Under the pieces are notes generated by a model. That model did not search any database and was not told the origin of the DNA. It saw only the letters and a list, made by a program, of their open reading frames with translations. Both the position numbers and the translations under genes were made by a program. From Escherichia coli (GTDB lineage Bacteria > Pseudomonadota > Gammaproteobacteria > Enterobacterales > Enterobacteriaceae), in the NCBI RefSeq assembly GCF_003334785.1, contig NZ_QOWV01000008.1: a stretch of 64,000 nucleotides of DNA. One strand, written 5' to 3'. Shown one piece after another: positions 1,127 to 59,403 of this stretch (position 1 is its first letter; each line of letters opens with the position of its first letter).

Positions 1127-2554
1127 ATGAGCGATAAAAAGAAGCGCAGTATGGCGGGTTTGCCGTGGATCGCGGCGATGGCCTTCTTCATGCAGGCACT
1201 TGATGCCACTATTCTTAATACCGCCTTACCCGCAATCGCTCATAGCCTTAATCGTTCTCCTCTCGCGATGCAATCAGCCATCATCAGTTATACGCTGACG
1301 GTGGCGATGCTTATTCCGGTAAGCGGATGGCTAGCCGATCGCTTCGGTACGCGTCGCATTTTTACCCTTGCCGTGAGTCTGTTCACATTGGGTTCTCTGG
1401 CCTGCGCACTTTCTAATTCGCTACCACAGCTGGTTGTCTTCCGGGTTATTCAGGGGATAGGCGGCGCAATGATGATGCCTGTTGCTCGGCTGGCCTTACT
1501 GCGCGCTTATCCTCGTAATGAACTTCTTCCAGTATTGAATTTTGTCGCCATGCCGGGTCTGGTGGGGCCAATTTTAGGCCCCGTTCTTGGCGGCGTGCTG
1601 GTCACCTGGGCAACCTGGCACTGGATATTTTTAATCAATATCCCCATAGGTATTGCGGGCCTTCTTTACGCGCGCAAACATATGCCCAATTTCACCACCG
1701 CACGACGCAGATTCGATATCACTGGCTTTTTGCTGTTTGGCCTCAGCCTTGTTCTCTTCTCAAGCGGAATAGAGCTATTCGGGGAAAAGATTGTCGCCAG
1801 CTGGATTGCCTTGACGGTAATTGTCACCAGCATCGGGTTACTGCTTCTCTATATTCTCCATGCACGACGCACGCCAAACCCATTAATTTCATTAGATTTA
1901 TTTAAAACCCGCACTTTCTCGATCGGTATCGTAGGCAATATTGCAACCCGTCTGGGGACCGGCTGTGTACCGTTCCTTATGCCATTGATGTTACAGGTAG
2001 GATTTGGTTATCAGGCGTTTATTGCTGGCTGTATGATGGCACCGACAGCGTTAGGTTCCATTATTGCAAAATCGATGGTTACCCAAGTCTTACGTCGTCT
2101 GGGCTATCGCCATACGTTAGTGGGGATCACGGTGATTATTGGGCTAATGATCGCTCAGTTCTCTTTGCAATCACCAGCAATGGCTATATGGATGCTGATC
2201 TTGCCGTTGTTTATATTAGGGATGGCTATGTCGACGCAGTTTACCGCGATGAATACCATCACACTTGCCGATCTGACCGATGACAATGCCAGCAGCGGTA
2301 ACAGTGTTCTGGCGGTCACGCAGCAACTGTCGATTAGTTTAGGCGTTGCTGTAAGTGCGGCCGTCCTTCGCGTTTATGAAGGAATGGAAGGCACAACGAC
2401 TGTCGAACAATTCCACTATACGTTTATCACAATGGGCATTATTACTGTTGCTTCAGCAGCAATGTTCATGCTTCTGAAAACAACCGATGGTAATAATTTG
2501 ATCAAAAGACAGCGTAAATCTAAGCCGAACCGCGTTCCATCAGAATCGGAGTAA
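1127..2554 (+). CDS. hsrA: MFS transporter HsrA (YieO), 14-TMS drug:H+ antiporter family
   Basis: 475-aa hydrophobic ORF with MFS motifs ([11 protein letters not shown]); synteny between yieP and rbsR. Confidence 0.9.
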
Positions 2555-3502
2555 GTTGTAATCGTTGTTGCTGAAGGGTCGGCTGGGTTATCCGATGGAT
2601 GAGTACATCAATCGCCAGCTCCCCCAGTTCATCTTTCGGTTGGTGGATAGTGGTTAATGGTGGCGTCATAAAGCTTGCCAGTTCGATATCGTCATAGCCA
2701 ATCACCGCGATATCCTGCGGAACCTGTAACTCTGCCTGATATAACGCCTGGTAAACGCCAACAGCCATAGCGTCATTTCCGGTAAAGACGGCCTGAGGAC
2801 GCAGCGGATGTGATAGCAGTTGGCGCATAGCGTCAAACCCGCCGTTAAATTCAAAATCACCAGTGACTTCATAGCCATCAGGAATGTTGAGACCCGCACG
2901 TTTCATCGCCGCCCGATAACCTTCCAACCGCAGGCGCGCCGGAGTTTTATCCAGCGGGCCGGTAATACAGGCGATACGGGTATGACCTTTATCGATCAGA
3001 TATTGCGTTGCTAAGTCTCCGCCCAGCAACGAGTTATCCTGAATAAGATCGCTGTCGCAGCCCAGTCCATCATCACAGTAGGCACTGTCGGATAACGTTG
3101 CATGATTTCACGCGAAGGTTGATGCGTTTCGGTGCACAGTAACAGCAAGCCATCAACGCGTTTTTGCATCAGCGTTTCCAGATTGCGATTCATCCGCTGT
3201 TCATCGCCTTCGGTATTGCAAAGGACGAGACTATAACCGCGTTCGAAGCAGCTGCGTTCAACGCCACGCACCAGTTCTGAATAGAAAGGATTGGTACTGG
3301 CAGTGATCAACATGCCAATGGTATGTGTTTGATTGAGTTTGAGGCTACGCGCCAGAGCTGATGGCGCGTAATTGAGTTCTTTAATCGCCGCTTCAACTTT
3401 GGCGGTAATCGCTTCACTGACGAAGCGATCTTTATTGATAACGTGAGAAACTGTTGAGGTAGAAACGCCCGCCAGGCGGGCAACATCTTTCATTGTAGCC
3501 AA
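2520..3502 (-). pseudogene. rbsR: rbsR, LacI-family ribose operon repressor, disrupted by frameshift
   Basis: Two overlapping ORFs in different frames: 3011..3502 holds the N-terminal HTH half ([23 protein letters not shown]...VMMDW, then out-of-frame tail [16 protein letters not shown]), and 2520..3029 holds the C-terminal half ([20 protein letters not shown]...MERGSA). In-frame upstream extension of the second ORF reads [15 protein letters not shown]. Consistent with deletion of about 10 bp (codons for P-F-D-G in the RbsR sequence as I recall it) near 3040..3045. Confidence 0.8.
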
Positions 3503-12132: not shown

Positions 12133-13577
12133 CGCTGGATACGCTTAATGTGATGCTGGCCGTCAGCGAAGAGGGATTGATCGAAGAGATGATCATCGCA
12201 CTGCTGGCCTCACCGCAGCTGGCGGTCTTCTTTGAAAAATTCCCACGCCTGAAGGCGGCAATCACTGATGATGTTCCCCGCTGGCGTGAAGCGCTGCGCA
12301 GTCGGCTGAAAGATGCCCGAGTCCCGCCGGAACTCACCGAAGAGGTGATGTGCTATCAGCAAAGCCAGCTCCTCTCCACGCCACAGTTTATTGTGCAGCT
12401 ACCACAGATCCTGGACTTACTGCATCGTCTGAATTCTCCATGGGCAGAACAAGCCCGACAGTTGGTTGATGCTAACAGCACGATCACTTCAGCGTTACAC
12501 ACGCTTTTTCTCCAGCGTTGGCGTTTAAGTCTGATCGTGCAAGCAACGACGTTAAATCAACAGCTATTAGAAGAAGAACGCGAACAACTGTTGAGTGAAG
12601 TTCAGGAACGCATGACGCTGAGCGGACAACTTGAACCGATTCTCGCAGATAACAATACTGCAGCTGGTCGTCTGTGGGATATGAGCGCCGGTCAGCTTAA
12701 ACGTGGCGACTATCAGTTGATTGTGAAATACGGTGAATTTCTTAACGAACATCCGGAACTGAAACGCCTGGCAGAGCAGCTGGGGCGTTCTCGGGAAGCC
12801 AAATCAATACCGCGCAACGATGCGCAGATGGAAACCTTCCGCACCATGGTGCGCGAACCGGCGACGGTTCCTGAGCAGGTTGATGGTCTGCAACAAAGCG
12901 ATGATATTTTACGTCTCCTGCCGCCAGAACTGGCGACACTAGGGATAACGGAACTGGAGTATGAGTTTTACCGTCGGCTGGTGGAAAAACAGTTGCTCAC
13001 CTATCGCCTGCACGGTGAGTCGTGGCGTGAAAAAGTGATCGAACGTCCGGTGGTACATAAAGATTACGATGAACAGCCGCGCGGGCCGTTTATTGTCTGT
13101 GTGGATACTTCCGGCTCAATGGGCGGCTTTAATGAACAGTGTGCGAAAGCGTTCTGCCTGGCCTTGATGCGCATTGCTCTCGCAGAAAACCGGCGCTGCT
13201 ATATTATGCTATTTTCCACCGAGATCGTCCGTTATGAGCTTTCAGGCCCACAAGGCATCGAACAAGCAATCCGTTTTTTAAGCCAGCAGTTTCGTGGCGG
13301 CACCGATCTTGCCAGTTGTTTTCGCGCCATTATGGAACGCTTGCAAAGCAGGGAATGGTTTGATGCCGATGCGGTGGTGATTTCTGATTTTATCGCTCAG
13401 CGGTTGCCTGACGACGTGACGAGTAAAGTGAAAGAGCTGCAGCGGGTACATCAGCATCGCTTTCATGCCGTGGCGATGTCGGCACACGGCAAACCCGGCA
13501 TCATGCGCATTTTCGATCATATCTGGCGCTTTGATACCGGGATGCGAAGCCGCCTGCTCAGACGCTGGCGGCGATAA
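12126..13577 (+). CDS. viaA: von Willebrand factor A-domain protein ViaA (RavA partner)
   Basis: 483-aa ORF; MIDAS motif in [11 protein letters not shown]; start overlaps ravA stop by 7 nt. Confidence 0.92.
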
Positions 13578-13581
13578 ATTA

Positions 13582-14574
13582 TTACAGCAGAGAAGGGACG
13601 CTCTCGCGAACAGCAGCTGGCCATACTCCACACTGAACCTGGCCGATATGCGGCAGTTGCAGCAGCAGCATAGTCAAACGAGACTGGCCGATACCGCCGC
13701 CGATGGTCTGCGGCATTTCACCGCGCAGCAGCGCCTGATGCCACTCCAGCTCCAGGCGATCTTCGTCACCGGTCAGCGCCAGTTGATGCTTCAGCGTGTC
13801 GGCATCTACACGGATCCCCATGGAGGAAAGCTCAAACGCATCTTCCAGTACCGGGTTCCACACCAGAATATCGCCGTTCAGACCCGCATGGCCCAGCTCT
13901 GACGGGGTGCTCCAGTCATCATAATCCGGTGCGCGCACGTCGTGGCGATGACCATCGCTCAGCTTGCCGCCAATCCCGACAAGGAATACCGCGCCAAGAT
14001 CTTTCGCTATCGCCCGCTCACGCCCTTTGGCATCAAGATCCGGATAACGAGACAGTAACTCCTGGCTGTGTACGAAGTGGATCTGATCCGGCAGGAACGG
14101 TGCCAGGCCAAACTCTTCGCTAACCGCAGCTTCGGTTGCTTTAATTCCCGCCCAGATCGCCTCTACCGTGCTTTTCAGAGTCGAGAATTGACGCTCACCG
14201 TCGCCCATTACGCGTTCCCAGTCCCACTGGTCAACATAGACCGAGTGCAACGGAGAAAGACGGTCTTCATCGGGGCGAAGGGCTTTCATGTGCGTGTACA
14301 GCCCTTCGCCCGCGCTGAAGTCGTGTTGCCCTAAGGTCTGACGTTTCCACTTCGCCAGTGAATGAACCACTTCGAACTGGGCATCAGGCAGAGCTTTCAC
14401 TTTTACCTGCACCGCTTTTTCACAGCCCGACAAGTTATCCTGCGTGCCATCCCCCACACGGCTAAGAATCGGCGCCTGGACTTCGATCAGCCCCAGACGT
14501 TCTTCCAGTTGACGAGAAAAGTGAGATTTCACGAAGCTAATTTGACGTTGTTTGGCAATGTAAGCGGTTTTCAT
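13582..14574 (-). CDS. asnA: aspartate--ammonia ligase (asparagine synthetase A)
   Basis: 330-aa [22 protein letters not shown]...; class II aaRS-like fold; synteny with divergent asnC. Confidence 0.95.
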
Positions 14575-14725
14575 TTTTTATACTCCTGCGTCCTGTTGCT
14601 TATGATTAAGCAACAAAAACCGACACACATGCAATAATCATTCAATAAAAAGCCTAACTCACTTTTGATTCATTAAAAAAGAAGGCTAAAATAGAATGAA
14701 TCATCAATCCGCATAAGAAAATCCT

Positions 14726-15184
14726 ATGGAAAATTATCTGATCGACAATCTGGACCGTGGCATCCTGGAAGCATTAATGGGCAATGCGCGCACCGCTTAC
14801 GCCGAACTGGCGAAACAATTTGGCGTCAGTCCGGGGACGATTCACGTTCGAGTAGAGAAAATGAAGCAGGCGGGGATCATTACCGGGGCGCGTATTGATG
14901 TCAGCCCGAAGCAGCTCGGTTATGACGTAGGCTGCTTTATCGGCATTATATTAAAGAGCGCCAAAGACTACCCTTCCGCGCTGGCAAAGCTGGAAAGCCT
15001 TGATGAAGTCACTGAAGCCTATTACACAACCGGCCACTACAGCATCTTTATAAAAGTGATGTGCCGTTCGATCGACGCTCTCCAGCATGTACTTATCAAC
15101 AAGATCCAAACAATTGATGAAATTCAGTCCACCGAGACATTGATCGTCCTGCAAAACCCGATCATGCGTACCATCAAGCCCTGA
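14726..15184 (+). CDS. asnC: Lrp/AsnC-family transcriptional regulator AsnC
   Basis: 152-aa ORF with N-terminal HTH and RAM domain; divergent from asnA. Confidence 0.95.
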   Translation: MENYLIDNLDRGILEALMGNARTAYAELAKQFGVSPGTIHVRVEKMKQAGIITGARIDVSPKQLGYDVGCFIGIILKSAKDYPSALAKLESLDEVTEAYYTTGHYSIFIKVMCRSIDALQHVLINKIQTIDEIQSTETLIVLQNPIMRTIKP

Positions 15185-15273
15185 TCGGCTTTTTTAATCC
15201 CATACTTTTCCACAGGTAGATCCCAACGCGTTCACAGCGTACAATACGCCACTCTTAATAAAGGTGGCGGTTT

Positions 15274-15717
15274 ATGGCAGATATCACTCTTATCAGCGGC
15301 AGCACCCTCGGCGGTGCCGAATATGTAGCAGAACACCTGGCTGAAAAGCTGGAAGAGGCGGGTTTTACCACCGAAACGCTGCACGGTCCGCTGTTAGAAG
15401 ATTTACCTGCCTCAGGGATCTGGCTGGTTATCAGCTCCACCCACGGTGCCGGAGATATTCCGGACAACCTTTCTCCTTTCTATGAAGCATTGCAGGAACA
15501 GAAGCCCGATCTTTCTGCAGTCCGCTTTGGCGCAATCGGTATTGGCAGTCGTGAATATGACACCTTTTGTGGGGCTATCGATAAACTCGAGGCAGAACTC
15601 AAAAATTCCGGTGCAAAACAGACAGGCGAAACACTGAAGATCAACATTCTTGATCACGACATTCCGGAAGATCCGGCAGAAGAATGGCTGGGATCGTGGG
15701 TTAATTTACTCAAATAA
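15274..15717 (+). CDS. mioC: flavodoxin-like FMN-binding protein MioC
   Basis: 147-aa ORF MADITLISGSTLGGAEYVAEHLA...; immediately flanks oriC. Confidence 0.95.
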   Translation: MADITLISGSTLGGAEYVAEHLAEKLEEAGFTTETLHGPLLEDLPASGIWLVISSTHGAGDIPDNLSPFYEALQEQKPDLSAVRFGAIGIGSREYDTFCGAIDKLEAELKNSGAKQTGETLKINILDHDIPEDPAEEWLGSWVNLLK

Positions 15718-15734
15718 GTATACAGATCGTGCGA

Positions 15735-16010
15735 TCTACTGTGGATAACTCTGTCAGGAAGCTTGGATCAACCGGTAGTTATCCAAAGAACAACTGTTGT
15801 TCAGTTTTTGAGTTGTGTATAACCCCTCATTCTGATCCCAGCTTATACGGTCCAGGATCACCGATCATTCACAGTTAATGATCCTTTCCAGGTTGTTGAT
15901 CTTAAAAGCCGGATCCTTGTTATCCACAGGGCAGTGCGATCCTAATAAGAGATCACAATAGAACAGATCTCTAAATAAATAGATCTTCTTTTTAATACCC
16001 AGGATCCCAG
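15735..16010. other. oriC: chromosomal replication origin oriC
   Basis: DnaA boxes R4 tgtggataa (15740..15748), R3 ttatccaaa (15779..15787), R2 tgtgtataa (15814..15822), R1 ttatccaca (15920..15928). Three AT-rich 13-mers as reverse complements of GATCTnTTnTTTT (15942..15954, 15957..15969, 15973..15985) and an AT cluster (15986..15998). 14 GATC sites between 15725 and 16006. Sequence matches canonical E. coli oriC in reverse orientation. Confidence 0.97.
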
Positions 16011-16095
16011 GTCTTTCTCAAGCCGACAAAGTTGAGTAGAATCCACGGCCCGGGCTTCAATCCATTTTCATACCGCGTTATGCGAGGCAATCACC

Positions 16096-17985
16096 ATGTT
16101 TTATCCGGATCCTTTTGACGTCATCATCATTGGCGGGGGTCATGCAGGCACCGAGGCCGCGATGGCCGCGGCGCGTATGGGTCAACAGACTCTGCTTTTG
16201 ACACACAATATCGACACTCTGGGGCAGATGAGCTGCAACCCGGCGATCGGCGGTATTGGGAAGGGACATCTGGTAAAAGAAGTGGATGCACTCGGCGGTC
16301 TGATGGCGAAAGCGATCGATCAGGCGGGTATCCAGTTTAGGATACTAAACGCAAGCAAAGGACCGGCGGTTCGCGCTACCCGAGCTCAGGCGGATCGTGT
16401 GCTCTACCGTCAGGCGGTACGTACGGCGCTGGAGAACCAACCGAACCTGATGATCTTCCAGCAGGCGGTTGAAGATCTTATTGTCGAAAACGATCGCGTG
16501 GTCGGTGCTGTTACCCAAATGGGACTGAAGTTCCGTGCCAAAGCCGTCGTGCTCACCGTTGGGACGTTCCTCGACGGTAAAATTCATATCGGTCTGGATA
16601 ATTACAGCGGTGGCCGTGCTGGTGATCCGCCGTCCATTCCGCTTTCTCGCCGTTTGCGTGAACTGCCGCTGCGCGTTGGTCGTCTGAAAACCGGGACACC
16701 ACCGCGTATTGATGCTCGAACCATCGACTTTAGCGTACTGGCGCAACAGCATGGCGATAACCCAATGCCGGTATTCTCGTTTATGGGCAATGCGTCCCAG
16801 CATCCCCAGCAGGTGCCGTGTTATATCACTCATACCAACGAGAAAACCCATGATGTGATCCGCAGTAACCTCGATCGTAGCCCAATGTACGCAGGGGTGA
16901 TCGAAGGTGTCGGCCCACGCTACTGCCCGTCGATCGAAGACAAAGTCATGCGCTTCGCCGACAGAAATCAGCATCAGATCTTCCTTGAACCGGAAGGACT
17001 GACCTCTAATGAAATTTATCCGAACGGTATCTCCACCAGCCTGCCGTTCGATGTGCAGATGCAAATCGTCCGCTCTATGCAGGGGATGGAAAACGCGAAG
17101 ATCGTGCGTCCGGGTTATGCCATTGAGTATGACTTCTTCGATCCTCGCGACCTGAAACCGACGCTGGAGAGCAAGTTTATCCAGGGGCTGTTCTTTGCTG
17201 GTCAGATTAACGGCACTACCGGTTACGAAGAAGCCGCTGCGCAAGGTTTGCTGGCCGGTCTTAACGCTGCCCGTCTGTCTGCTGACAAAGAAGGTTGGGC
17301 TCCGGCACGTTCTCAGGCGTATCTCGGCGTACTAGTTGATGACCTGTGCACTTTAGGAACCAAAGAACCGTATCGTATGTTTACTTCGCGCGCAGAATAT
17401 CGTCTGATGCTACGCGAAGATAATGCGGATCTGCGTTTGACTGAAATCGGTCGTGAACTGGGCCTGGTGGATGACGAACGTTGGGCGCGCTTTAACGAGA
17501 AACTTGAGAATATCGAGCGTGAGCGTCAGCGTCTGAAATCGACCTGGGTAACCCCGTCGGCGGAAGCTGCAGCCGAAGTGAATGCTCACCTGACTGCGCC
17601 GCTTTCCCGTGAAGCCAGTGGTGAAGATCTGCTGCGTCGTCCGGAAATGACTTATGAAAAATTAACCACGCTGACGCCGTTTGCCCCTGCGTTGACAGAC
17701 GAACAGGCGGCGGAACAGGTTGAGATTCAGGTTAAATACGAAGGTTATATCGCGCGCCAGCAAGATGAGATCGAAAAGCAGCTGCGTAACGAGAACACCC
17801 TGCTACCCGCGACACTGGATTACCGCCAGGTATCCGGTCTTTCTAACGAAGTGATCGCCAAACTTAACGATCACAAACCAGCCTCTATCGGCCAAGCTTC
17901 GCGTATTTCTGGCGTCACGCCTGCGGCCATCTCCATTCTGCTGGTGTGGCTGAAAAAACAGGGTATGCTGCGTCGTAGCGCATAA
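16096..17985 (+). CDS. mnmG: tRNA uridine 5-carboxymethylaminomethyl modification enzyme MnmG (GidA)
   Basis: 629-aa ORF; FAD-binding [10 protein letters not shown] motif. Confidence 0.96.
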
Positions 17986-18048
17986 CGCATTAAAAATGCC
18001 TGGTAAGCACCCGCTTACCAGGCAACGCATCAAGAACAGGTAATCACC

Positions 18049-18672
18049 GTGCTCAACAAACTCTCCTTACTGCTGAAAGACGCAGGTATTTCGCTTACCG
18101 ATCACCAGAAAAACCAGCTTATTGCCTACGTGAATATGCTGCATAAATGGAACAAAGCGTACAACCTGACTTCGGTCCGCGATCCTAATGAGATGCTGGT
18201 ACGCCATATTCTCGATAGCATTGTGGTGGCACCGTATCTGCAAGGTGAACGGTTTATCGATGTCGGCACCGGACCAGGACTGCCAGGCATTCCACTCTCT
18301 ATCGTGCGTCCTGAAGCCCATTTCACTCTGTTGGATAGCCTTGGTAAACGCGTGCGTTTCCTTCGTCAGGTGCAACATGAGCTTAAACTGGAGAATATTG
18401 AACCAGTACAGAGCAGGGTAGAAGAGTTTCCTTCAGAGCCGCCATTTGATGGCGTAATTAGCCGCGCTTTTGCCTCTCTGAACGATATGGTGAGCTGGTG
18501 CCACCATCTTCCTGGTGAGCAAGGCCGTTTCTACGCGCTGAAAGGGCAAATGCCGGAAGATGAAATCGCTTTGTTGCCCGAAGAATATCAGGTCGAATCA
18601 GTGGTTAAACTTCAGGTTCCAGCCCTGGATGGCGAACGTCATCTGGTGGTGATTAAAGCAAATAAAATTTAA
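18049..18672 (+). CDS. rsmG: 16S rRNA m7G527 methyltransferase RsmG (GidB)
   Basis: 207-aa ORF; SAM-binding [10 protein letters not shown] motif. Confidence 0.95.
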
Positions 18673-19276
18673 TTTTTATCAAAAAAATCATAAAAAATTG
18701 ACCGGTTAGACTGTTAACAACAACCAGGTTTTCTACTGATATAACTGGTTACATTTAACGCCACGTTCACTCTTTTGCATCAACAAGATAACGTGGCTTT
18801 TTTTGGTAAGCAGAAAATAAGTCATTAGTGAAAATATCAGTCTGCTAAAAATCGGCGCTAAGAACCATCATTGGCTGTTAAAACATTATTAAAAATGTCA
18901 ATGGGTGGTTTTTGTTGTGTAAATGTCATTTATTAAAACAGTATCTGTTTTTAGACTGAAATATCATAAACTTGCAAAGGCATCATTTGCCAAGTAAATA
19001 AATATGCTGTGCGCGAACATGCGCAATATGTGATCTGAAGCACGCTTTATCACCAGTGTTTACGCGTTATTTACAGTTTTTCATGATCGAACAGGGTTAG
19101 CAGAAAAGTCGCAATTGTATGCACTGGAAAAATATTTAAACATTTATTCACCTTTTGGCTACTTATTGTTTGAAATCACGGGGGCGCACCGTATAATTTG
19201 ACCGCTTTTTGATGCTTGACTCTAAGCCTTAAAGAAAGTTTTATACGACACGCGGCATACCTCGAAGGGAGCAGGA
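18673..19276 (+). promoter_or_regulatory. long AT-rich leader/promoter region upstream of atp operon
   Basis: About 600 bp non-coding AT-rich DNA between rsmG and atpI; the main atp promoter is known to lie upstream of atpI. Exact -35/-10 not assigned. Confidence 0.5.
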
Positions 19277-26228: not shown

Positions 26229-26528
26229 GCGCGTGTGACCCGTCCTGAATAGCGTTCACATAGATCCTGCTGATATAAAACCCCCCTGTTTTCCTGTTTA
26301 TTCATTGATCGAAATAAGAGCAAAAACATCCACCTGACGCTTAAATTAAGGTACTGCCTTAATTTTCTGCAGACAAAAGGCGTGACGATGGTCGAAAATG
26401 GCGCTTTCGTCAGCGGGGATAATCCGTTATTGAACAATTTATCCTCTGTCCATTTCACGATGAAAAAAATGTAGTTTTTTCAAGGTGAAGCGGTTTAAAT
26501 TCGTTCTCAAATTACAGTCAGGACGCGT

Positions 26529-57405: not shown

Positions 57406-57639
57406 CTAAACTTGAATAAATTCAATGGCTTTATTGGATATCCGCCGAAAAATGAAACGATGGACACCGAAGCCATGGGTGATTAAAGAGGCCGGATTGT
57501 AATAATTGTACACTCCGGAGTCAATTCTCTTTCCTTATTTACCGCGCTTTTCCGCACCTTTTCGCAGGGAAAATGTACGACCTCACACCAGTGGAAACCA
57601 GCATGGCGCGCCGGGTGGAGGATTATACGGGCTGATGGG

Positions 57640-57999
57640 TAAAGCGCAAGGATCGTCCTGGATCTTTATTAGATCGATTAAGCCAATTTTTGTCTATGGT
57701 CATTAAATTTTCCAATATGCGGCGTAAATCGTGCCCGCCTCGCGGCAGGATCGTTTACACTTAGCGAGTTCTGGAAAGTCCTGTGGATAAATCGGGAAAA
57801 TCTGTGAGAAACAGAAGATCTCTTGCGCAGTTTAGGCTATGATCCGCGGTCCCGATCGTTTTGCAGGATCTTGATCGGGCATATAACCGCAGACAGCGGT
57901 TCGTGCGTCACCCTCAAGCAGGGTCTTTTCGACGTACGTCAACAATCATGAATGTTTCAGCCTTAGTCATTATCGACTTTTGTTCGAGTGGAGTCCGCC
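57640..57999 (+). promoter_or_regulatory. dnaA promoter region with DnaA box and GATC cluster
   Basis: DnaA box tgtggataa at 57782..57790; at least 9 GATC sites between 57651 and 57876 (57651, 57661, 57672, 57749, 57827, 57841, 57854, 57867, 57873). Confidence 0.8.
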
Positions 58000-59403
58000 G
58001 TGTCACTTTCGCTTTGGCAGCAGTGTCTTGCCCGATTGCAGGATGAGTTACCAGCCACAGAATTCAGTATGTGGATACGCCCATTGCAGGCGGAACTGAG
58101 CGATAACACGCTGGCCCTGTACGCGCCAAACCGTTTTGTCCTCGATTGGGTACGGGACAAGTACCTTAATAATATCAATGGACTGCTAACCAGTTTCTGC
58201 GGAGCGGATGCCCCACAGCTGCGTTTTGAAGTCGGCACCAAACCGGTGACGCAAACGCCACAAGCGGCAGTGACGAGCAACGTCGCGGCCCCTGCACAGG
58301 TGGCGCAAACGCAGCCGCAACGTGCTGCGCCTTCTACGCGCTCAGGTTGGGATAACGTCCCGGCCCCGGCAGAACCGACCTATCGTTCTAACGTAAACGT
58401 CAAACACACGTTTGATAACTTCGTTGAAGGTAAATCTAACCAACTGGCGCGCGCGGCGGCTCGCCAGGTGGCGGATAACCCTGGCGGTGCCTATAACCCG
58501 TTGTTCCTTTATGGCGGCACGGGTCTGGGTAAAACTCACCTGCTGCATGCGGTGGGTAACGGCATTATGGCGCGCAAGCCGAATGCCAAAGTGGTTTATA
58601 TGCACTCCGAGCGCTTTGTTCAGGACATGGTTAAAGCCCTGCAAAACAACGCGATCGAAGAGTTTAAACGCTACTACCGTTCCGTAGATGCACTGCTGAT
58701 CGACGATATTCAGTTTTTTGCTAATAAAGAACGATCTCAGGAAGAGTTTTTCCACACCTTCAACGCCCTGCTGGAAGGTAATCAACAGATCATTCTCACC
58801 TCGGATCGCTATCCGAAAGAGATCAACGGCGTTGAGGATCGTTTGAAATCCCGCTTCGGTTGGGGACTGACTGTGGCGATCGAACCGCCAGAGCTGGAAA
58901 CCCGTGTGGCGATCCTGATGAAAAAGGCCGACGAAAACGACATTCGTTTGCCGGGCGAAGTGGCGTTCTTTATCGCCAAGCGTCTACGATCTAACGTACG
59001 TGAGCTGGAAGGGGCGCTGAACCGCGTCATTGCCAATGCCAACTTTACCGGACGGGCGATCACCATCGACTTCGTGCGTGAGGCGCTGCGCGACTTGCTG
59101 GCATTGCAGGAAAAACTGGTCACCATCGACAATATTCAGAAGACGGTGGCGGAGTACTACAAGATCAAAGTCGCGGATCTCCTTTCCAAGCGTCGATCCC
59201 GCTCGGTGGCGCGTCCGCGCCAGATGGCGATGGCGCTGGCGAAAGAGCTGACTAACCACAGTCTGCCGGAGATTGGCGATGCGTTTGGTGGCCGTGACCA
59301 CACGACGGTGCTTCATGCCTGCCGTAAGATCGAGCAGTTGCGTGAAGAGAGCCACGATATCAAAGAAGATTTTTCAAATTTAATCAGAACATTGTCATCG
59401 TAA
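58000..59403 (+). CDS. dnaA: chromosomal replication initiator DnaA
   Basis: GTG start at 58000 ([18 protein letters not shown]; 467 aa); Walker [11 protein letters not shown]; C-terminal DNA-binding domain. Confidence 0.97.

Follow-up and report, generated by a model that had tools for sequence, protein, structure and literature searches.

A canonical oriC between mioC and mnmG in an Escherichia coli genome very close to K-12 MG1655

The mioC-mnmG intergenic region and the limits of oriC

The DNA analysed here is a 64-kb stretch of an Escherichia coli genome (hereafter the window), in which the 379-bp region 15717-16095 corresponds to the whole intergenic region between mioC and mnmG (gidA). 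Both flanking genes are open reading frames for which an identical sequence is annotated in RefSeq: mioC (15274-15717, + strand, 147 aa), which is transcribed towards the origin, and mnmG (16096-17985, + strand, 629 aa). An earlier note on this DNA had placed a complete oriC at 15717-16095. These coordinates do contain the origin; however, they are wider than oriC proper, the 245-bp minimal oriC being located at 15741-15985, where it reads on the - strand from classical position 267 to 23. For this placement, we take the classical numbering to be counted from the BamHI site (16002-16007). Thus, oriC proper extends over 15741-15985, or up to 16007 with the adjoining AT-rich cluster, and 16007-16095 belongs to the promoter and leader of mnmG. 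Every base of the K-12 minimal oriC described by Oka et al. (245 bp) is found unchanged in the window.

On the mnmG side, a consensus scan revealed a promoter-like site (TTCTCA-16-TAGAAT, 16015-16042, + strand) that lies upstream of mnmG, reads away from the origin and is a candidate gid promoter. On the mioC side, the terminator scan found no terminator-like site between the mioC stop codon and oriC. According to the literature, the mioC promoter carries five DnaA boxes and is repressed by DnaA-ATP; upstream of mioC in the window, we found one box of the stringent consensus, at 15206-15214 (TTTTCCACA). No statements on mioC/gidA transcription were found in a 2026 review.

It should be mentioned that the oriC feature of RefSeq (232 bp) stops 5 bp short of DnaA box R4 and omits R4 and part of the C1 site, both of which belong to the 245-bp minimal oriC as defined in the literature (PMC4585315).

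DnaA boxes and low-affinity arrays

Screening for the DnaA box TTATCCACA with at most one mismatch gave four matches in the region against 0.07 expected, and none of 100 shuffles of the window reached the total count of boxes in the window. R4 (15740-15748, - strand) and R1 (15920-15928, + strand) are perfect consensus boxes of high affinity, both TTATCCACA with 0 mismatches. They are located at opposite edges and in opposite orientation, with R2 between them, and form a perfect inverted repeat of 11 nt. R2 (15814-15822, - strand, TTATACACA) has one mismatch, and its columns are 92-94% identical across 16 relatives (see later in the text). The classical R3 box (15779-15787, + strand, TTATCCAAA) also has one mismatch and overlaps C2 and C3; R3 is now regarded as overlapped by these two sites (PMC5742627). 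The four boxes reported in the earlier note were therefore all recovered. However, four is the classical count, and the current map comprises 12 DnaA sites, of which R1, tau1, R5M, tau2, I1 and I2 have one orientation and R2, C3, C2, I3, C1 and R4 the other (PMC5742627).

Except for R5M, the low-affinity sites were placed by the published spacing rule, with 3 bp from R4 to C1 and exactly 2 bp from each site to the following one (PMC4451416). The right array predicted by this rule (15752-15793, - strand) consists of C1 (15752-15760), I3 (15763-15771), C2 (15774-15782) and C3 (15785-15793). The left array (15832-15873, + strand) consists of I2 (15832-15840, CTGATCCCA), I1 (15843-15851, TTATACGGT), tau2 (15854-15862, AGGATCACC) and R5M (15865-15873, TCATTCACA), and tau1 lies at approximately 15876-15884. 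The 9-mers obtained in this way for I2, I1 and tau2 match the known sequences of these sites. The region thus carries two oppositely oriented arrays with 2-bp spacing, R5M-tau2-I1-I2 and C1-I3-C2-C3, to which DnaA is predicted to bind; the low-affinity sites have been footprinted in K-12, whose sequence is identical here. The gap between R1 and R5M is 46 bp in our count versus the '45 bp' of PMC4451416, which is a matter of definition.

Duplex-unwinding element and sites for other proteins

The duplex-unwinding element of oriC is made of three 13-mers with the consensus GATCTnTTnTTTT and a flanking AT cluster (PMC5742627). In the window, it is located at 15942-15985 on the - strand and comprises the 13-mers R (15942-15954, GATCTCTTATTAG), M (15957-15969, GATCTGTTCTATT) and L (15973-15985, GATCTATTTATTT). 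L, M and R differ from the consensus by 1, 1 and 2 mismatches, respectively, lie head to tail on the same strand and all start with GATCT, in agreement with the three tandem AT-rich 13-mers of the earlier note. Counting consensus matches alone is uninformative, as GATCTnTTnTTTT with up to two mismatches is not enriched across the 64-kb window (23 matches versus 20.3 expected); only the tandem triplet is distinctive. A repeat search with a 6-nt seed recovered the relationships of R1/R4 and R3. It did not recover the 13-mers as a family of direct repeats, because they share only GATCT exactly. In a nearest-neighbour profile, duplex stability within the intergenic region is lowest at the M and L 13-mers; among all 41-bp stretches of the 64 kb, the one that starts at 15957 ranks fifth for instability (99.9th percentile). 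The 13-mer L is flanked by the AT-rich cluster, followed by the BamHI site GGATCC (together 15986-16007, - strand); a role of this cluster has been described (PMC5742627).

The published map of oriC has a single IHF site and a single Fis site (PMC5742627, PMC4585315, PMC4451416, PMC4285127). Both are present as exact matches to the strings of PMC4285127, the Fis site at 15788-15802 (- strand, GAACAACAGTTGTTC) between R2 and C3, and the IHF site at 15889-15901 (- strand, GATCAACAACCTG) between R1 and R5M. The H-NS site (15853-15868) is likewise an exact match to its published string. Outside the minimal origin, the site for Rob ('right oriC-binding') was found at 15716-15735 on the - strand with the string of PMC4285127 (ATCGCACGATCTGTATACTT).

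GATC enrichment

The region 15717-16095 contains 14 GATC sites, starting at 15725, 15733, 15766, 15834, 15856, 15863, 15880, 15898, 15912, 15938, 15951, 15966, 15982 and 16003. All of them fall within 15725-16006 (282 bp), so that the 14 GATC in about 280 bp counted in the earlier note proved exact. The chance expectation of roughly one that accompanied this count holds for the mononucleotide composition (1.1 per 280 bp); it becomes about 1.5 at the window-wide rate of 5.4 GATC per kb, and dinucleotide-preserving shuffles of the 282 bp gave a mean of 2.03 and a maximum of 7 (n = 5000) versus the 14 observed. With the rate taken outside the region, the Poisson tail for 14 sites is 6.8e-10. The density scan proposed in the earlier note singled out the same place, as no 290-bp stretch starting outside 15300-16200 has more than 9 GATC. 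For 15725-16006, 14 in 282 bp stands; the minimal origin, however, canonically has 11 in 245 bp, and 11 of the 14 sites do fall in 15741-15985, as published (PMC5742627). The other three lie outside it, two in the Rob site beside the mioC stop codon (15725 and 15733) and the 14th in the BamHI site past the AT cluster (16003).

GATC density is still raised (at least 7 per 290 bp) at 15447-15717, in the 3' end of mioC, and at 16854-17140 in mnmG. The enrichment therefore extends past the intergenic region into the flanking coding sequences.

Identity to the origin of K-12 MG1655

Window positions 13229-18729 are the exact reverse complement of 3923000-3928500 of E. coli K-12 MG1655 (NC_000913.3). 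Over the intergenic region 15717-16095 identity is 100%, and there are no mismatches in the 5.5 kb around the origin, DnaA boxes included. The alignment check for mismatches in these boxes, a finding that the earlier note had set beforehand as counting against its reading, thus returned zero. The absence of any insertion or rearrangement that it described is borne out by the same identity. The 'origin_of_replication' oriC of RefSeq (NC_000913.3 3925744-3925975, 232 bp) maps to 15754-15985 and is flanked by mioC and mnmG; hence, the identical sequence is annotated as oriC at the position on the chromosome, between mioC and gidA, where the earlier note had located it. The MG1655 origin has the same flanking genes, the 11 GATC, the 13-mers L, M and R, the boxes R1-R4 and R5M, and the IHF and Fis sites. 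We found no difference inside the origin, and NC_000913.3 merely has the opposite strand.

The whole window is collinear with K-12 at 99.97% identity and spans about 3.878-3.942 Mb in K-12 coordinates (past window position 3058, the K-12 coordinate equals 3941729 minus the window coordinate). Eight SNPs and a deletion of 10 bp in rbsR separate it from MG1655, and none of these changes falls in the origin. The source strain is therefore a very close relative or derivative of K-12 MG1655, and not the record NC_000913.3 itself.

Of 5426 complete E. coli genomes, 5425 matched the 379-bp region, many of them (MG1655 included) at 100% identity. All of these matches were chromosomal, none was on a plasmid, and the median copy number was one. 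A single genome of the 5426 gave no match to the oriC query. In 34 of the 5425 genomes, less than 80% of the query was covered (e.g. NZ_CP027701.1, 1-221; NZ_CP038346.1, 1-378). At least some of these low-coverage genomes are records linearised within the oriC region, which explains genomes with two oriC 'places'.

Strand composition and gene orientation

Over the 64-kb window, cumulative G-C is lowest at 16128, some 120-140 bp away from the 13-mers. Skew amounts to -0.034 (z = -3.0) on the left side of the origin and +0.032 (z = +5.0) on the right, and the sign change anticipated in the earlier note is therefore seen within the window. This compositional switch is the one expected for an origin, as far as 64 kb are visible. 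Replication direction likewise gives the genes their context: to the right of the origin, mnmG, rsmG, atpIBEFHAGDC, glmUS, pstSCAB-phoU, the bgl operon and dnaA-dnaN-recF-gyrB are all oriented away from it.

Conservation in Enterobacterales and Vibrionaceae

Species-representative genomes were scanned with the pattern TGTGGATAA-N(160-185)-TTATCCACA, which is its own reverse complement. Among the matches listed, E. coli-type origins were found in at least 12 Enterobacterales and at least 4 Vibrionaceae, and 16 were aligned. R1 and R4 are fixed by the design of the search in these 16 relatives and were excluded from the comparison. The span from R1 to R4 is 188-189 nt in all 16 aligned origins. 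Identity to the window inside the named elements is 84% for the Enterobacterales and 68% for the Vibrionaceae, versus 61% and 42% in the spacers.

These origins (e.g. those of Citrobacter, Enterobacter, Yersinia, Photorhabdus, Providencia and chromosome 1 of Vibrio) share architecture and spacing with the window, that is, three GATC-headed AT-rich repeats, R1, the GATC of the IHF site, R5M, I1/I2, R2, R3/C2 and R4, with 8-15 GATC per origin. They differ from it by their divergent spacers and by C1 and I3, which are poorly conserved. Among the 11 GATC of the minimal origin, 8 are kept in at least 10 of the 12 Enterobacterales, and 7 of those 8 in at least three of the four Vibrionaceae. The GATC heading the three 13-mers are kept in all 16 relatives, and that of the IHF site (15898) in 12/12 Enterobacterales and 4/4 Vibrionaceae. 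Outside the minimal origin, the Rob-site GATC (15725, 15733) are kept in 6-7 of 12 Enterobacterales and that of the BamHI site (16003) in 8 of 12, and none of them in the four Vibrionaceae. This conservation shows that the GATC enrichment is selected and not accidental. The alignment reproduces the classical comparative result on oriC.

Convergent perfect DnaA boxes 160-185 nt apart were also seen, among the matches listed, in very diverse phyla (Actinomycetota, Bacillota, Bacteroidota and Patescibacteria among others). Two such places on one contig were found among these matches, for example in Pseudomonas plecoglossicida and in Arthrobacter sp. Leaf141.

An origin rather than a regulatory or silent locus

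Taken together, these data indicate that the region is almost certainly the single chromosomal oriC of an E. coli strain very close to K-12. The other readings that we considered, a regulatory cluster, a silent extra copy or a chance cluster, share among them only a slight probability.

The motifs in question, GATC and 9-mers allowed one mismatch, are short and might cluster by chance in an AT-rich intergenic region. Since none of the 5000 dinucleotide shuffles exceeded 7 GATC, the observed number of boxes was not attained in any of the 100 shuffles of the window and the motifs are conserved at aligned positions as far as Vibrionaceae, we give this explanation no weight at all. A cluster of DnaA boxes could also be regulatory and not initiating, either as a titration or reactivation site similar to datA or DARS or through control of the mioC or mnmG promoters. 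Boxes do occur at promoters in the window, namely at 15206-15214 before mioC (TTTTCCACA) and as a perfect box at 57782-57790 before dnaA. The latter is even inside a GATC cluster, and so boxes and GATC alone do not prove an origin. The comparison with the dnaA promoter region (about 57570-58000) is instructive in this respect. It resembles oriC in having a GATC cluster and a perfect DnaA box, and SeqA sequestration has been reported for both (PMC4451416). However, it is a promoter and not an origin, and has no tandem 13-mers, phased low-affinity arrays or skew switch. The promoter sites before mioC and dnaA are devoid of tandem 13-mers, phased arrays and IHF and Fis sites, whereas every one of these features is present in 15717-16095, which matches the annotated oriC of K-12 base for base and coincides with the skew switch. 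Moreover, datA, DARS1 and DARS2 are located elsewhere, at 94.6, 17.5 and 64.0 min, respectively (PMC4585315). A purely regulatory role is accordingly very improbable.

Because only 64 kb of the source genome are visible, the region could in principle be a silent or extra oriC copy (an integrated minichromosome or a duplication) in a genome that initiates elsewhere. Yet the flanking 64 kb are collinear with K-12 at 99.97% identity, so that this is the native locus, and the strand-composition switch is located here. In addition, the median copy number in complete E. coli genomes is one, and some of those with two 'places' are records opened inside oriC. We regard a silent copy as exceedingly unlikely. 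The same low probability applies to a canonical oriC that is not the sole origin or not the active one, for example with a second origin elsewhere, and nothing in the data suggests such a situation.

The GATC cluster at about 57568-57860, with 7 or more sites per 290 bp, immediately precedes dnaA (CDS 58000-59403, + strand) and includes the perfect box 57782-57790 on the - strand. It is consistent with the known dnaA promoter, which is sequestered by SeqA and autoregulated by DnaA.

Initiation cycle expected from the K-12 literature

DnaA-dependent autonomous replication and unwinding of the 13-mers have been established experimentally for the identical K-12 sequence and would be expected of the oriC described here, which, given this identity, is probably active in replication in the source strain. 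The cycle described in the literature for K-12 (PMC5742627, PMC4451416, PMC4285127) may be carried to this oriC as follows. In K-12, the high-affinity boxes R1, R2 and R4 are bound by DnaA throughout the cell cycle, and, prior to initiation, Fis is bound to its site between R2 and C3 (PMC5742627, PMC4451416, PMC4285127). At initiation, rising ATP-DnaA cooperatively fills R5M-tau2-I1-I2 and C1-I3-C2-C3 (PMC5742627, PMC4451416, PMC4285127). DNA is bent by IHF between R1 and R5M, the AT-rich 13-mers unwind in the order M, R and then L, and the T-rich single strand is captured by DnaA at R1 and R5M; the DnaB helicase is then loaded and replication proceeds bidirectionally (PMC5742627). After passage of the fork, the 11 GATC are hemimethylated and bound by SeqA. 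During roughly a third of the cycle, until remethylation by Dam, SeqA blocks the GATC-overlapping sites R5M, tau1, tau2, I2 and I3 as well as the IHF site (PMC5742627, PMC4451416, PMC4285127). This sequestration prevents re-initiation. None of the genes dam, seqA, ihf and fis falls in the window; their presence in the source genome is assumed, for dam and seqA because the source is E. coli.

The oriC of this window is already known in every detail and adds no new biology. Its value is that of a positional anchor, which places the window at the origin of the E. coli chromosome and gives each gene a replication direction. It also accounts for the local statistics of GATC and DnaA boxes, so that there is no anomaly to flag.

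Other observations in the window

The SNPs relative to MG1655 are located at window positions 85, 4877, 12752, 31820, 39760, 43507, 51090 and 52862, none of them less than 2.9 kb from oriC. In rbsR (locus 2520-3502, - strand), 10 bp of MG1655 (K-12 3938671-3938680) are deleted at window position 3058/3059, which shifts the reading frame of RbsR, the ribose repressor (330 residues), beyond about residue 147. The deletion was not shared by any of the roughly 5410 complete E. coli genomes that gave a match; the best identity at the junction was 94.0%, and the other listed matches were at 93.4%, which corresponds to the gap. With a 13-kb query, the best E. coli genomes were 99.9% identical and came from assorted human and animal isolates, and none had the rbsR deletion. 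The deletion may have arisen as a private mutation, from an error of assembly or by editing.

Two RNA families were also matched in Rfam. In the atpC-glmU intergenic region, at a position for which the NC_000913.3 features fetched include no RNA, there is a full-length match to the enterobacterial sRNA STnc410 (26288-26445, - strand, 188 bits). AsdA, the antisense RNA of the dnaA mRNA, matches at 58510-58590 (- strand, 101.9 bits), and this match is overlapped by a further GATC cluster (about 58551-58840, 7 or more per 290 bp), which is located within the coding sequence of dnaA.
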